From assembly GCA_021731245.1 (NCBI GenBank), contig JAKFXT010000002.1, positions 24,164 through 88,163 of the forward strand: a stretch of 64,000 nucleotides of DNA, written 5' to 3'. The stretch is from Patescibacteria group bacterium. Its GTDB lineage: Bacteria > Patescibacteriota > Minisyncoccia > Phycocordibacterales > JAKFXT01. The translations under genes and the position numbers were made by a program. Below, in pieces: positions 11,460 through 51,316 of the stretch (positions are counted from its first letter, which is position 1; every line of letters starts with the position of its first letter). Below the pieces are notes generated by a model. The model was given only the letters and a program-made list of their open reading frames with translations, was not told the DNA's origin and ran no database searches.

Positions 11460-12551
11460 ATGTCTTTATCTGTTGGAATTGTCGGTTTACCAAATGTGGG
11501 GAAATCCACGCTTTTTAATGCATTAACTAAGAACTCTGTTCCTGCAGAAAATTATCCATTTTGTACTATTGATCCATCAGTAGGGATTGTACCCGTGCCT
11601 GATGAAAGACTTTGGAAATTATCTGAATTTTCTAAATCAGCTAAGACACTTCCTGCGGTAGTGGAATTCGTAGATATTGCGGGATTAGTAAAAGGTGCAT
11701 CCGAGGGGCAAGGTCTTGGTAATAAGTTTTTGGCAAATATAAGAGAGACGGACGCAATACTGGAAGTGGTGAGAATATTTGAGAATGCTGATGTGATACA
11801 CGTGGACGGAGGGATAAATCCAATAAGAGATATAGGTGTAATAAATCTTGAATTAATGCTATCGGACTTGGATACAGTAAATAAAAGACTTGGAAATGTG
11901 GAGCGTGATAAAAAAAGAGGTGAAAAAAGTGCTGTAATAGAATTTGATGCATTAGCAAAAATTAAAGCAGCTTTAGAATCTGAAAAAATGGCACACACAA
12001 TTACACTTGATGAAAAAGAGCAACCTTTGATAAAACAATTAAACCTTTTGACCAATAAGCCAATTCTCTACGCTCTTAATAAACAACAGGGTGGAAAAAA
12101 CATTGATGAGAATAATAAAGAAGAATTTAATAAATTAATTGAATATATAAAAAGTATAGGTGGAAATTATTTAGTATTTGACGCTAAGACAGAAGATGAA
12201 CTCAAAGAGTTTAGCGAAGAAGAAAAAAAAGAATTGCAAAGCAATACCGATATTAGCGGAGTAAACAATTTGATTAAGAAATCTTACGAGTTACTTAATC
12301 TCATTACTTATTTCACAACAGGTGAAGATGAAAGCAGGGCTTGGACTATTAAGAAAAATTCAACGGCACCAATTGCGGGCACGGCCATTCATAATGATTT
12401 CAAAGATAAATTTATAAGAGCAGAAGTTATTTTCTGGAGTGAATTACTAGAAAGTGGCTCATATGCAGTCGCTCGTGAAAAAGGATTAGTCAGAATTGAA
12501 GGTAAGGAATATATAGTCAAAGATGGGGACGTCGTAGAGTTTAGGATTTAA
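11460..12551 (+). CDS. ychF: Ribosome-binding ATPase YchF (Obg-like GTPase family)
   Basis: P-loop GIVGLPNVGKSTLFNALT, G4-like motif NKxD, and the C-terminal TGS-like domain. 363 aa. Confidence 0.9.
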   Translation: MSLSVGIVGLPNVGKSTLFNALTKNSVPAENYPFCTIDPSVGIVPVPDERLWKLSEFSKSAKTLPAVVEFVDIAGLVKGASEGQGLGNKFLANIRETDAILEVVRIFENADVIHVDGGINPIRDIGVINLELMLSDLDTVNKRLGNVERDKKRGEKSAVIEFDALAKIKAALESEKMAHTITLDEKEQPLIKQLNLLTNKPILYALNKQQGGKNIDENNKEEFNKLIEYIKSIGGNYLVFDAKTEDELKEFSEEEKKELQSNTDISGVNNLIKKSYELLNLITYFTTGEDESRAWTIKKNSTAPIAGTAIHNDFKDKFIRAEVIFWSELLESGSYAVAREKGLVRIEGKEYIVKDGDVVEFRI

Positions 12552-12577
12552 AAAAAGAAACCCCACCGAAGTGGGAT

Positions 12578-12868
12578 TCAATAGCCGCCTTCTGTTTTCG
12601 GCTTCTCAAGCTCTGATATCTTTTCTAGCCAATCCGTTTTTGATACCCGGTACGATCCAGGGAGGACATGGGTGACGAATCCTTCTTCGTCTTCATCGGG
12701 AGTTGCTAGACGAGTACGGTAGAAAATCGCAGAAGCAATTTTCCCATCCCAGAAGGTGTTTTGCCAGTCTATCGAACGCCCTGTTTCTTGTACTCTAGAT
12801 TTTACTGATGTGGGTGGACATAAAGGTGCGGAGTAGTTCCACCAGTCGTATTCTTCCATCATCCTCAT
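12578..12868 (-). CDS. Hypothetical small protein. It is locally GC-richer than its neighbours and has a good SD, unlike them.
   Basis: AAGGAG sits 9 nt upstream of the ATG. Downstream is the hairpin cccac-cgaa-gtggg followed by a T run on this strand. Local GC is clearly above the surroundings. Confidence 0.35.
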   Translation of the reverse strand: MRMMEEYDWWNYSAPLCPPTSVKSRVQETGRSIDWQNTFWDGKIASAIFYRTRLATPDEDEEGFVTHVLPGSYRVSKTDWLEKISELEKPKTEGGY

Positions 12869-12975
12869 GGAGGTGTCTCCTTGTGGCTGTCTTATGCCAA
12901 TAAAACATATAAAATATCTATAATCAAACTAGGAAAAATATTGTCATATTGCCTATAAACAAGTATATTTTCTTA

Positions 12976-15825
12976 ATGATTTCGTACGACCATAAGAAAA
13001 TTGAAAAAAAGTGGCAAGCTATTTGGGAAAAAACCAAAGCTTTTAAAGCTAAATTTCCTTCAAAAACAAAGAAATTTTATGGTCTTATAGAATTCCCGTA
13101 CCCATCAGGTGATGGACTCCACGTGGGGCATATTAGAAGTAATACCGCTATGGATATTATTTCTAGAAAGCGTCGTGCTGAAGGATATAACGTACTTTAC
13201 CCAATGGGCTGGGACGCCTTCGGACTTCCTACAGAAAACTATGCGATTAAGACGGGAATTCATCCTGCTATTGTCACGAAGCAAAATACAGACACATTCC
13301 GAAAACAATTAAAAAATTTAGGATTCTCTTTTGATTGGGATAGAGAAATAAATACAACGGACCCAAAATATTATAAATGGACACAGTGGATTTTCTTACA
13401 ATTATTTAAAAAAGGCTTAGCTTATAAAGCCACTATACCTATTAATTGGTGTTTGAACTGTAAAGTTGGTTTAGCGAACGAAGAGGTGGTAGACGGAAAA
13501 TGCGAAAGATGTGGGGGACCAACAGAAAAAAGAGACAAAGAACAGTGGATGCTTGCTATTACTAAGTATGCTGACCGATTGGATAAAGATTTGGATTCCG
13601 TTGATTATTTACCGCAAATAAAAACACAACAGAGAAATTGGATAGGGCGTTCTGTAGGGGCTGAAATTGAATTTAAAATAAAAGGGACTGATAGTAGTTT
13701 AAAAGTTTTTACTACAAGACCAGATACGCTTTTTGGTGCCACATATGTAGTAATTGCACCAGAGCATAAAATTATAGATACGCTTAAAAATAAAATTAAT
13801 AATGCTCTTGAAGTGGGTATGTATGTGCAACTTGCAGCCAATCAAAATGAGATGGAACGTCTTGCAGAAGGTAAGGAAAAAACAGGTGTAGAAATAAAAG
13901 GAATTAAAGCAATTAATCCTGCAAATGGAGAAGAGCTTCCTGTTTATGTAGCTGACTATGTTTTATCTACATATGGTACGGGGGCAATAATGGCAGTTCC
14001 AGCGCACGATGAGAGGGATTATGAATTCGCTAAGAAGCTTAGTTTGCCAATCAAAGAAGTTGTAATACCAAGCAGAATAGATAGAAATAATCCACCGCGT
14101 AAAGAAGGTAAAAAAACAGTAGAAAGGACCAATGTTCATGCCATTATTAGAAATCCAAAGAATGGAAATATTTTGTGTTTAAAATGGAAAAAACAACCGT
14201 GGATTACTTTTCCTATGGGTGGAGTTGAAAAGGGAGAGGATTTGGTGGAAGCGGCTAGACGTGAGGCACGAGAAGAAACCGGCTATACCAACTTAAAGTT
14301 GGTGAAAGTCATGGGAGGTCTTGTTAAAGCTGAATATTTTGCGACGCATAAAAATGAAAACAGAGTGTCTTGGACCAACGCCGTAATGTTTGATTTAAGT
14401 GATGAATTTCAAGAAGAAAGGAGCGAGGAAGAAAAAAATAATTATGACCTTGTTTGGTTTTCTAAAAATGAAATAACTTATCCAAAAATAGTCCACGCAG
14501 AACTCGATATATGGTTATCACGTTGGGATAAAGAAGATTTTACATATATAGAGGAGGGTGTACTTATAAATTCTGGAAAGTTTGATGGAATGGAAAGTGA
14601 AAAAGCTAAGTCAGAAATTACAAAATTTGTTAAAGGTAAAAAAGTTACTAAATTTAAACTCCGTGATTGGGTTTTTTCCCGTCAAAGATATTGGGGGGAG
14701 CCGATACCTGTAATTAATTGTAAGAAATGTGGGCTTGTTCCAGTGCCCGAAAAACAACTTCCTGTATTACTGCCTGATGTAAAAAATTATAAGCCAACTG
14801 ATAATGGAGAATCTCCACTTGCAAATATTAATTATTGGGTAAATGTGAATTGCCCAAAGTGTAAAGGTAAAGCAAAAAGAGAAACTGATGTTATGCCAAA
14901 CTGGGCCGGGTCCTCTTGGTACTTCCTTCGTTATACGGACTCAAAAAATAATAAGGAATTTGCCTCTAAAAAGGCGCTTAAATACTTCACGCCCATTGAT
15001 TGGTACAACGGAGGAATGGAACACACTACACTACATCTTCTTTATTCAAGATTTTGGCACAAGTTTTTGTTTGATTTGAAATTAGTGCCAACAAAGGAAC
15101 CTTATCAAAAAAGGACTTCACATGGACTTATTCTTGCAGAAGGAGGAGTTAAAATGAGCAAGTCAAAAGGGAACGTTATTAACCCAGACACAATAGTAGA
15201 AAATGTCGGGGCGGACACTCTTCGTTTGTATGAAATGTTTATGGGTCCATTTGATCAAGCTATTGCTTGGAATGAAGACAGTATGGTTGGATGCCGCAGG
15301 TTTATAGAAAGAGTTATAAAACTAAGTGAAAAAATTAAGAATATACCAAATAAAAATGGAGATGAAACACTTGAAGTCTTAATAAATCAAACTATAAAGA
15401 AGGTGACTGAAGATATTGAGAGTATGAAGTTTAATACTGCCGTGAGTGCCATGATGATACTCTGTAATGAATTTGAAAAAAGAGAATTTATTTCAAAAAA
15501 TGAATTTGAAGTGTTTATAAAAATACTTTCTCCATTTACACCGCACATAACAGAAGAGCTCTGGCAGAACATTGGCAATAAAGGAAGTGTCCATTCTGTA
15601 AAATGGTCCGTATTTAATAAAAATAAATTATTAAATGATGAAGTTAATATTTCAGTTTCGGTGAACGGTAAAAGTAGGGGAATCGTAAAAGCAAAAAATG
15701 ATGCCACGGAAGAAGATGTTATACGTTTAGCAAAGAAGAATTCTGAAATAGAGAAGTGGATTAAAGAGTATGAGAAAGTTATATACGTTAAGGGTAAAAT
15801 TATAAATTTCGTAACAGGTAAATAA
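12976..15825 (+). CDS. leuS: Leucyl-tRNA synthetase with a Nudix hydrolase domain inserted after the editing-domain HDxRD motif. An alternative start exists at 12949.
   Basis: HIGH motif (HVGH), KMSKS, two Cys4 zinc knuckles, the TTRPDT editing motif and AHDERDYEFA. A ~160-aa insert (14065-14550) carries a perfect Nudix box, GGVEKGEDLVEAARREAREETGY. Confidence 0.9.
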   Translation: MISYDHKKIEKKWQAIWEKTKAFKAKFPSKTKKFYGLIEFPYPSGDGLHVGHIRSNTAMDIISRKRRAEGYNVLYPMGWDAFGLPTENYAIKTGIHPAIVTKQNTDTFRKQLKNLGFSFDWDREINTTDPKYYKWTQWIFLQLFKKGLAYKATIPINWCLNCKVGLANEEVVDGKCERCGGPTEKRDKEQWMLAITKYADRLDKDLDSVDYLPQIKTQQRNWIGRSVGAEIEFKIKGTDSSLKVFTTRPDTLFGATYVVIAPEHKIIDTLKNKINNALEVGMYVQLAANQNEMERLAEGKEKTGVEIKGIKAINPANGEELPVYVADYVLSTYGTGAIMAVPAHDERDYEFAKKLSLPIKEVVIPSRIDRNNPPRKEGKKTVERTNVHAIIRNPKNGNILCLKWKKQPWITFPMGGVEKGEDLVEAARREAREETGYTNLKLVKVMGGLVKAEYFATHKNENRVSWTNAVMFDLSDEFQEERSEEEKNNYDLVWFSKNEITYPKIVHAELDIWLSRWDKEDFTYIEEGVLINSGKFDGMESEKAKSEITKFVKGKKVTKFKLRDWVFSRQRYWGEPIPVINCKKCGLVPVPEKQLPVLLPDVKNYKPTDNGESPLANINYWVNVNCPKCKGKAKRETDVMPNWAGSSWYFLRYTDSKNNKEFASKKALKYFTPIDWYNGGMEHTTLHLLYSRFWHKFLFDLKLVPTKEPYQKRTSHGLILAEGGVKMSKSKGNVINPDTIVENVGADTLRLYEMFMGPFDQAIAWNEDSMVGCRRFIERVIKLSEKIKNIPNKNGDETLEVLINQTIKKVTEDIESMKFNTAVSAMMILCNEFEKREFISKNEFEVFIKILSPFTPHITEELWQNIGNKGSVHSVKWSVFNKNKLLNDEVNISVSVNGKSRGIVKAKNDATEEDVIRLAKKNSEIEKWIKEYEKVIYVKGKIINFVTGK

Positions 15826-16046: not shown

Positions 16047-17078
16047 ATGTCTATCAAACTTACATTTAAACCAAAACAAGTAGTCAAAAGGCTTTTGTCA
16101 GCCCTTCCTCCACGTGCCTCCGACGTGGTTGTTAATCGTTATGGTCTTGGAAAAACACCAGAAAGAATGACACTTGAAGCTATTGGAAAGAACTACAAAA
16201 TCACCAGAGAAAGAGTTCGTCAGATTGAGAATTACTCTTTTGGTGTTATAAGGAAATCTCCACTTTATAATAAAGAAAAAGCTATTTTTGATGAGTTACA
16301 AACAGTGGTGGATGAGATGGGCAATGTCGTTTCGGAACATCATCTTTTGAAAAATATTTCTGAAGATTTGAGTACGCAAAATAATATACACTTTCTACTA
16401 GTGTTGGGAGATGCTTTCAAGAAAAGAAAAGAGGATGAACATTTTAATCACCGCTGGTTTGTGGATGATTCTTTGGCTAATAAAGTTGAAACGGCTTTGA
16501 AGAAACTTTATGAGACACTTGAAGATGAGGCTATTATACCGGAGTCAGAAATGATCTCTACATTTTTAGATAGTTTGAAAGAAATTTCAGAAAAATACAG
16601 AAACGATGAAATAGCCAAAAGATGGCTAGGTTTGTCTAAAAAAATTGGACATAATCCACTTGGAGAATGGGGCATCTCTCATTCTTCAAATATAAAAGCT
16701 AAGGGTATGCGTGACTTCGCCTATCTTTCTATTCGTCGTCACGGATCCCCAATGCACTTTACTGAAGTTGCCAAGTCTATAAAACAGCTTTTTGATCGTG
16801 AGGCTCATGTTGCAACATGCCATAACGAACTTATAAAGGATAAGAGGTTTGTTTTGGTTGGACGTGGGCTTTATGCGCTTTCTGAATGGGGCTACTCATC
16901 TGGTGTTGTAAAAGATGTTATTCGCGAAATAATAAAGAAATATGGGCCACTTAGTAAACAAGAGGTGGTAGATAAAGTTTTGAAAGAAAGATATGTAAAG
17001 GAAAATACTATTGCCGTGAACTTACAAAACCCAAAGTTTTTCAAAAAGAATAAAGAGGGTAAGTATAGTATTGTTTAA
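16047..17078 (+). CDS. Sigma-70 region-4-like HTH protein with a C-terminal winged-helix-like domain. Putative transcription factor.
   Basis: The N-terminus (TLEAIGKNYKITRERVRQIE) matches the sigma70 region 4.2 helix-turn-helix signature. Promoter TTGACG-N17-TAGAAA lies upstream at ~15990. Confidence 0.5.
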   Translation: MSIKLTFKPKQVVKRLLSALPPRASDVVVNRYGLGKTPERMTLEAIGKNYKITRERVRQIENYSFGVIRKSPLYNKEKAIFDELQTVVDEMGNVVSEHHLLKNISEDLSTQNNIHFLLVLGDAFKKRKEDEHFNHRWFVDDSLANKVETALKKLYETLEDEAIIPESEMISTFLDSLKEISEKYRNDEIAKRWLGLSKKIGHNPLGEWGISHSSNIKAKGMRDFAYLSIRRHGSPMHFTEVAKSIKQLFDREAHVATCHNELIKDKRFVLVGRGLYALSEWGYSSGVVKDVIREIIKKYGPLSKQEVVDKVLKERYVKENTIAVNLQNPKFFKKNKEGKYSIV

Positions 17079-50836: not shown

Positions 50837-51316
50837 ATGTCACACATAAACGAGAAAATTGACTACACAGTGGATGTTTATATTGTCTACAAAAATAAAG
50901 TACTGCTCCGTTTACATGAAAAATACAATGTTTGGCTTGGAGTTGGTGGCCACATAGAACTTGATGAAAATCCAAATCAAGCAGCAATTCGTGAAGTAAA
51001 AGAAGAAGTTGGTCTCGACATAACTATTTTTAATTCCTTAGATTTAGAAATATCTAAAATTAATAAAGAAAAAAAGAATGGAAAATATTTAGAATTAATA
51101 CCTCCAGTCTTTATGAATATGCATCCAATAGATGATATTCACAGTCATGTATCTTTAATATATTTCGCTGAAGCCAAGAATGATGAGGTTATTCCAGAAA
51201 ACATTGATGATCAATGGAAATGGTTGTCCAAAAAAGAATTAGAGGAAATGCAAAATGAAATTCATCCTCAAGTTTATCTCTATGCAAACAAAGCATTAGA
51301 GTGTTTGACAAATTAA
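50837..51316 (+). CDS. Nudix hydrolase
   Basis: Perfect Nudix box, GGHIELDENPNQAAIREVKEEVGL (Gx5Ex7REUxEExGU). Confidence 0.75.
   Translation: MSHINEKIDYTVDVYIVYKNKVLLRLHEKYNVWLGVGGHIELDENPNQAAIREVKEEVGLDITIFNSLDLEISKINKEKKNGKYLELIPPVFMNMHPIDDIHSHVSLIYFAEAKNDEVIPENIDDQWKWLSKKELEEMQNEIHPQVYLYANKALECLTN

Follow-up and report, generated by a model that had tools for sequence, protein, structure and literature searches.

Few enzymes of translation have been studied as thoroughly as leucyl-tRNA synthetase (LeuRS), whose connective peptide 1 (CP1) domain is a drug target (benzoxaboroles). Among the closest described systems are isoleucyl-tRNA synthetase (IleRS) with a GNAT acetyltransferase domain (NCBIfam NF040702), in which a synthetase is likewise combined with a second catalytic domain, although a different one, and NadM-Nudix, a bifunctional Nudix fusion of a nucleotide enzyme. 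To our knowledge, both are terminal fusions that are not nested in an editing domain, and neither is a Nudix domain in an aminoacyl-tRNA synthetase (aaRS). Here, a leuS gene (12976..15825, + strand) was analysed in a stretch of 64,000 nucleotides (the window) from a Patescibacteria group bacterium (assembly GCA_021731245.1, contig JAKFXT010000002.1, positions 24,164 to 88,163 of the forward strand). Its product almost certainly carries a genuine and conserved Nudix domain that is nested in the synthetase. The protein would be bifunctional, charging tRNA-Leu and proofreading as any LeuRS does and acting, in addition, as an active Mg2+-dependent Nudix pyrophosphohydrolase.

In public databases, the Pfam domains of such proteins are already precomputed, and the entries are named 'leucyl-tRNA synthetase' or 'class I tRNA ligase family protein'. 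A full-text literature search, with most subscription-journal papers outside its coverage, turned up no description of a Nudix domain within an aaRS, LeuRS included.

The LeuRS of the window and its Nudix insert

The leuS gene lies in a single unbroken open reading frame (ORF; 12949..15825, + strand), which is open from a TTG at 12949 and closed by a TAA stop at 15823-15825. As homologues begin with MKxYDHxKIEKKWQ, translation very probably begins at the ATG at 12976. The product scored 978.9 bits (cut-off 548.4) with the bacterial LeuRS model TIGR00396 (leuS_bact), the match being split in two by the insert, and the Pfam domains detected were tRNA-synt_1, the editing domain PF13603 (E=1.1e-63), Anticodon_1 and NUDIX. 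Both class I signatures, HVGH (residues 58-61) and KMSKS (residues 735-739), are present, and they are invariant or nearly so across 101 aligned homologues (alignment A1; 60-85% overall identity). The editing-site motifs TTRPDT (residues 255-260, nt 13711-13728) and GTGAIMAVPAHDERD, which holds HDERD (residues 353-357, nt 14005-14019), are intact and invariant across relatives, the T, T, R, D and T of the former and the H, D, R and D of the latter being fixed in A1. Judged from its sequence, the host protein is thus a complete bacterial-type LeuRS with intact aminoacylation and editing-site motifs.

The position of the insert was defined by phmmer alignment to the LeuRS of Thermus thermophilus, in which residues 12-372 of the query corresponded to residues 3-362 of the Thermus enzyme, and residues 532-744 to residues 376-593. 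A Thermus loop of 13 residues is replaced by residues 373-531 (nt 14065-14541), which amount to 159 residues and a net gain of about 146. The first part of the CP1 editing domain (residues 229-372, nt 13633..14064, + strand) precedes the insert, with residues 229-378 matching positions 1-146 of the 185 of PF13603, and its last part (residues 532-566, beginning EEGVLINSGKFDG, nt 14542..14646, + strand) follows it, aligning from Thermus residue 376 and returning to the catalytic core at FKLRDWVFSRQRYWG. The insert therefore falls between PF13603 positions 146 and 153 and comprises a Nudix core (Pfam residues 393-512, nt 14125-14484) with N- and C-terminal extensions of its own. Because residues 530-560 still match PF13603 positions 153-183, the alignments place the Nudix domain, as an autonomous unit, within the CP1 editing domain, in a loop 16 residues past HDERD.

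A preliminary description of this DNA had placed a Nudix insert of about 160 residues between HDERD and a leucyl-specific, KMSKS-proximal segment. The insert itself stands, as residues 373-531, but the segment downstream of it belongs to CP1. The same description held CP1 to be shortened between TTRPDT and HDERD; this was not borne out, as the alignment is nearly free of gaps (361 query residues against 360 in Thermus, and 364 against 360 in the Escherichia coli LeuRS).

The profile PF00293 matched residues 393-512 with E=2.2e-15 and 57.3 bits, against a gathering score of 21.1, so the Pfam check proposed in the preliminary description gave a significant Nudix match within the insert. The complete Nudix box that had been read at nt 14218-14286 was also found to be correct: residues 424-446 (GGVEKGEDLVEAARREAREETGY, + strand) fit the consensus G-x5-E-x7-R-E-U-x-E-E-x-G-U, including the catalytic glutamates, with E430, R438, E439, E442 and E443 at the key positions. 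The domain also carries the subfamily motifs NPPxxGKKxVER, WKK and AHKxxNR. The last of these appears in the window as HKNENR (H467, K468, N471 and R472; nt 14347..14364, + strand), which in the predicted structure sits at the turn joining two long strands after the Nudix helix. K468, N471 and R472 were invariant both in A1 and in a further alignment (A2), R393 (of 'VER') was invariant in A1, and R393 and these residues of HKNENR, with H467, are candidate phosphate-binding residues.

Structure predictions agreed with this arrangement. The full-length AlphaFold2 model, built with 101 homologues, reached a predicted local distance difference test (pLDDT) of 89 and a predicted template modelling score of 0.80, with 10-residue pLDDT blocks of about 85-94 through the Nudix insert and its linkers; the Nudix domain modelled alone reached a pLDDT of 93. 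The insert has the alpha/beta/alpha sandwich fold of the Nudix superfamily. When the full-length model was compared with LeuRS structures by Foldseek, template modelling (TM) scores of 0.75-0.85 (normalised to target length) were obtained at 30-36% identity. With the LeuRS of T. thermophilus (1H3N/2BYT) and E. coli (4AQ7), the protein shares the catalytic core, ZN1, ZN2, a CP1 with the T-rich and HDxRD motifs, and the anticodon-binding and C-terminal domains. It differs from the Thermus enzyme in having the 159-residue Nudix insert in place of the 13-residue CP1 loop and in lacking the leucine-specific domain. The latter (about Thermus residues 581-635) is absent from the window LeuRS, where residues 731-734 (nt 15139-15150) pair with Thermus residues 580-636 and KMSKS directly follows 'LAEGGV'.

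Distribution and conservation of the LeuRS-Nudix architecture

The distribution given here rests on an exhaustive profile search and on a DNA-motif scan of one genome per GTDB species, in which EETG[YF] had to be followed, after 20 codons, by HKxxNR; a word-index search with the insert alone, which returned one protein (P0121) and missed a LeuRS of 85% identity, was uninformative. PF00293 was present in all 120 of the 120 best homologues (52-85% identity), whose named metagenome-assembled genomes (MAGs) are Patescibacteria or Paceibacter. The DNA scan gave at least 120 loci. In tblastn comparisons of the 120 listed ones, the N-terminal LeuRS part, the Nudix domain and the C-terminal LeuRS part were collinear in 103; 10 more were cut by the end of the locus or contig, and the other 7 were free-standing genes. 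LeuRS-Nudix was thus found in 113 of these species-level loci, most of them from Patescibacteria. Their labels include Paceibacterota, Parcubacteria, Taylorbacteria, Nomurabacteria, Zambryskiibacteria, Buchananbacteria, Magasanikbacteria, Uhrbacteria, Falkowbacteria, Komeilibacteria, Berkelbacteria, Moranbacteria, Peribacteria and Gracilibacteria, and many carry Saccharibacteria labels.

Some LeuRS-Nudix MAGs bear other labels, given here as deposited and unconfirmed, which name Bacilli, Clostridia, Erysipelotrichaceae, Gammaproteobacteria and DPANN archaea. Loci L009, L018, L034, L048, L050, L080 and L095 are labelled Bacilli, Clostridia or Erysipelotrichaceae, and L016, L055, L063 and L097 are labelled as DPANN archaea. 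If the labels hold, the entire leuS gene would have been transferred horizontally.

The source of the window is a metagenome-type genome, where chimeras occur, and an assembly chimera, a frameshift artefact or a chance motif had to be considered on that ground and on no other. The frame is unbroken, the G+C content stays even over the insert junctions (0.34-0.39) and the Pfam match has E=2e-15. The same architecture also recurs in more than 300 independently assembled proteins and in the 113 genome loci, and these, together with the 120 best homologues, refute an artefact, whose probability we regard as negligible. The LeuRS-Nudix architecture is common across Patescibacteria LeuRS and is neither an assembly artefact nor a recent fusion.

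A complete Nudix box was present in 118 of 121 aligned proteins, and all five key residues (E, R, E, E and E) were kept in 260 of the 281 canonical-site copies taken from 376 proteins and loci. In A1, G424, R438, E439, E443 and G445 were invariant, and E430 and E442 were at least 90% conserved. The Nudix domain diverges faster than its LeuRS flanks, with a median identity of 42% compared to 57%. No usable co-variation was found between degeneration of the box and degeneration of the editing motifs, the 'degenerate' editing calls being nearly all conservative TTR[IV]DT variants. Since the Nudix box, the editing motifs and the synthetic motifs are all conserved, the patterns point to an active hydrolase in a fully functional LeuRS, and the Nudix domain is probably catalytically active.

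The Nudix subfamily and its structural neighbours

By its motifs and profile scores, the insert is a distinct and uncharacterised Nudix subfamily. Membership of RppH was rejected, as the NCBIfam PRK00714 models gave 26-28 bits for the insert and 36 for a free-standing relative, compared to cut-offs of 116-259. The equivalogs NudI, NudB, NudE, MutT and ADP-ribose pyrophosphatase were rejected as well, with at most 29 bits against cut-offs of 95-248 (NudI, 29 against 95). Sequence and profile searches of the PDB with the insert gave generic, sub-threshold Nudix matches only, which justify no functional transfer.

Among structural matches to the Nudix model, the best characterised was E. coli RppH, followed by the Ndx1 Ap6A hydrolase, MutT1, NudI and hydrolases of diadenosine tetraphosphate (Ap4A), with ADP-ribose pyrophosphatases lower. 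Identity to RppH (which also hydrolyses Ap4A and Np4A caps), Ndx1, NUDT2 and the lupin and Aquifex Ap4A hydrolases is just 17-23%. Unlike RppH and the Ap(n)A hydrolases, the Nudix domain of the window has motifs of its own and lies within another enzyme. Its mode of action may resemble that of RppH, though it is not a member of that family.

With E<=1e-30 the profile search gave 137 cluster representatives, a number that rose to 438 with E<=1e-10. Some 40 matches among those listed were taken as free-standing, although several of the longer of these turned out to be LeuRS fragments and one a prolyl-tRNA synthetase (ProRS). The free-standing members have about 160 residues and the same motifs, as in P0121 (38% identity), and their genes were found in loci L001, L011, L069, L070, L106, L111 and L113. 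One MAG (SRR15604581_bin.61) contains both the embedded form (L017) and the free-standing form (L106). No conserved partner gene was seen in the neighbourhoods of the free-standing relatives in L069, L070 and L106. A partial protein of 379 residues (P0133) consists of tandem subfamily Nudix repeats only, 71% identical to each other, and has no synthetase part.

Additional insertion sites and other inserted domains

The same Nudix subfamily occupies three LeuRS sites besides the canonical one, often in tandem and with up to three copies per protein. The first lies ahead of CP1, between a 'DLD' segment and WPExxKxxQRNWIG (P0122, P0123, P0125, P0126, P0136 and P0138), the second in the CP1 hairpin, before TTRPDT (P0013, P0019, P0124, P0127 and L053), and the third in the ZN2 region (P0140, P0232, P0260 and P0149). 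Tandem Nudix domains also occur at the canonical site (P0129 and L103). In P0125 and P0260 the canonical copy is lacking, and Nudix copies stand at other sites. Copies within one protein are only 19-43% identical and are therefore old paralogues.

Many of these extra copies have a degenerate box, and tandem pairs of an intact and a degenerate copy resemble pseudo-dimers. Such features would suit a module without catalysis, in which the Nudix fold senses a ligand, mediates dimerisation or offers tRNA an additional binding surface, for instance one that compensates for the leucine-specific domain, which is absent from the window LeuRS. The retention of E, R, E, E and E in 260 of the 281 canonical-site copies argues against this, as does alignment A1, where the arginine, two glutamates and two glycines of the box are invariant and E430 and E442 at least 90% conserved, the pattern expected for catalysis and not for binding alone. 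We consider a non-catalytic role quite improbable.

Other domains have entered LeuRS in some lineages, namely a Ser_hydrolase/alpha-beta-hydrolase (PF06821/PF00561) in the CP1 hairpin and a HAD_2 domain (PF13419) in ZN2. LeuRS proteins bearing them were found in locus L013 (1325-6430, - strand) and as P0126, P0136, P0074, P0045 and P0050. The LeuRS of L013, from Taylorbacteria, has 1702 residues and holds three Nudix domains, one alpha/beta-hydrolase domain and one HAD domain.

Outside LeuRS, five protein clusters (P0242 and P0271-P0274) are class II ProRS of archaeal type in which a Nudix domain of this subfamily, with the box GGQDNLDIKEAAQKEIIEETGY, separates the anticodon-binding domain from the C-terminal one. 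Among the ProRS listed, the closest that lack the insert (P0275-P0278) share 78-80% identity with them where they align, and more distant insert-free relatives, where named, are called Nanoarchaeota or Woesearchaeota. The ProRS Nudix domain represents an insertion independent of those in LeuRS.

These findings bear on the main rival of the explanation favoured below, namely that the Nudix domain is a pure passenger. An independent housekeeping enzyme (e.g. an RppH-like RNA pyrophosphohydrolase or a sanitiser of the nucleotide pool) would then have been caught in a surface loop that tolerates insertions, in an essential and constitutive protein, with no functional tie to leucylation, editing or tRNA-Leu. 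That related LeuRS host alpha/beta-hydrolase and HAD domains in other loops, that free-standing members of the subfamily exist and that the Nudix domain evolves faster than its host (median identity of 42% against 57%) all fit such a passenger. It is less easily reconciled with the fixation of one subfamily at four LeuRS sites, with the retention of a canonical copy with an intact box across deep Patescibacteria lineages, or with the independent insertion in the unrelated class II ProRS, as repeated landing in aaRS is unlikely by chance. Nevertheless, intragenic duplication could yield the extra LeuRS copies without any functional link. We regard the passenger explanation as a real possibility, to which we give roughly one chance in three.

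Proposed function

For the bifunctional enzyme, the substrate would be a nucleoside 5'-polyphosphate, such as a dinucleoside polyphosphate like Ap4A, a compound resembling a nucleoside triphosphate, or a 5'-polyphosphorylated RNA end. This class is suggested by the structural neighbours RppH, the Ap(n)A hydrolases, NudI and MutT1 and by the invariant basic residues R393, K468 and R472 beside the box, and we hold it to be an even call. An ADP-sugar is less likely. Ap4A hydrolysis would be compatible with RppH, Ndx1 and the Ap4A hydrolases as structural neighbours. Hydrolysis of Leu-AMP or of misactivated adenylates, which the preliminary description had put forward beside that of Ap4A, is chemically less likely, because aminoacyl-adenylates are acyl-phosphates of a nucleoside monophosphate and not nucleoside diphosphates linked to X.

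The domain would act as a tethered house-cleaning hydrolase that clears nucleotide by-products of adenylate-forming chemistry in cells of minimal metabolism, with LeuRS as its always-expressed scaffold. The aaRS are a main source of Ap4A in cells, where Nudix hydrolases such as RppH break it down (PMC10148737). A functional coupling of the Nudix domain to aaRS chemistry, as opposed to mere carriage, is put forward tentatively, at somewhat below even chances. The explanation as a whole, with its substrate class, seems to us about as likely to be right as wrong.

Several observations weigh against it. LeuRS is among the 'low' Ap4A producers (PMC10148737), so that there is no compelling reason for LeuRS in particular to carry an Ap4A hydrolase. 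The inserted alpha/beta-hydrolase and HAD domains would fit a permissive scaffold with passengers equally well as coupling. In one recurrent Nudix paralogue, the box is degenerate (E to Q, and R to A, K or Q), and catalysis is thus not needed in every copy. Moreover, no NCBIfam Nudix subfamily model reached its cut-off with the insert, and the top structural match of the Nudix model was 2azw, an uncharacterised MutT/Nudix protein of Enterococcus faecalis from structural genomics, whose identity of 16-18% permits no functional transfer; for these two reasons, the substrate class is proposed with caution.

A more specific role at RNA ends was also weighed, in which the Nudix domain, carried by CP1, which handles the 3' end of tRNA, removes a polyphosphate or a group resembling a cap (e.g. 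a 5'-triphosphate, an Np4A cap or a 3'-pyrophosphate added by toxic small alarmone synthetases (toxSAS)) from tRNA bound to the synthetase and so restores chargeable tRNA. The best characterised structural neighbour, RppH, is itself an RNA pyrophosphohydrolase, and most of the weak NCBIfam matches are to models of RppH. The four sites of insertion in LeuRS (CP1, CP1 linker, CP1 hairpin and ZN2) belong to peripheral modules that, going by LeuRS structures, surround the acceptor-end side of the enzyme. In addition, an established mode of toxin action is to pyrophosphorylate the CCA end of tRNA and so to prevent its aminoacylation (10.1101/2021.04.30.441581, PMC11559606). However, the RppH models remained far under their cut-offs, mature tRNA carries a 5'-monophosphate, and no conserved tRNA-related neighbours were found for the free-standing members in Firmicutes-labelled MAGs (L069, L070 and L106 checked). 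We also know of no Nudix enzyme that takes a 3'-pyrophosphate off tRNA, and we judge such a role unlikely.

A related and still slightly less probable proposal is that the Nudix domain would be a third catalytic site serving the synthetase, a new kind of module for quality control or self-defence, placed where the tRNA 3' end is handled. Its targets might be a pyrophosphate or nucleotide adduct on damaged or toxin-modified tRNA ends (toxSAS, 3'-CCA), or inhibitors that mimic the adenylate or are dinucleotides, destroyed at their site of action. That function would then explain why aaRS have recruited the subfamily repeatedly, at four LeuRS sites, in as many as three copies and, independently, in a class II ProRS.

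Genomic context of leuS

In the window, leuS is preceded by a gene for a YchF-type GTPase (11460-12551) and followed by one for a protein with sigma-70 region 4 and HARE-HTH domains (16047-17078), neither of which is obviously linked to the Nudix domain. The upstream spacer (12552-12948) is GC-rich (0.43-0.45 compared to about 0.35) and holds an ORF of 96 residues on the minus strand (12578..12868), with GGAG 8 nt ahead of its ATG. Between this ORF and the ychF stop there is a hairpin, ccccaccgaagtggg (about 12561-12575). No Rfam match to a regulatory RNA or T-box was obtained upstream of leuS.

A stand-alone Nudix gene outside leuS (50837..51316, + strand), also listed in the preliminary description, was confirmed by PF00293 (E=1.1e-13). 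Its BLASTP match to the insert has E=0.03, and the likeness is confined to the box; the comparison assigns it to a different subfamily, and it is not a paralogue of the insert.

Significance

Specialists would be surprised by a second hydrolase that is nested in CP1 and kept across a major radiation of bacteria. The Nudix insert is a candidate lineage marker for Patescibacteria and, as it lengthens a widely used protein, it is relevant to LeuRS alignments. If the domain is a passenger only, it would show, together with the alpha/beta-hydrolase and HAD inserts, that an essential synthetase serves Patescibacteria as the scaffold of as many as five hydrolase domains, a striking genome economy. 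If it acts on by-products of the Ap4A type or on tRNA ends, LeuRS would be a synthetase that carries its own nucleotide-clearing or tRNA-repair activity, of which we know no earlier case, and this would offer a handle on the management of alarmone-like nucleotides in ultra-small symbiotic cells.

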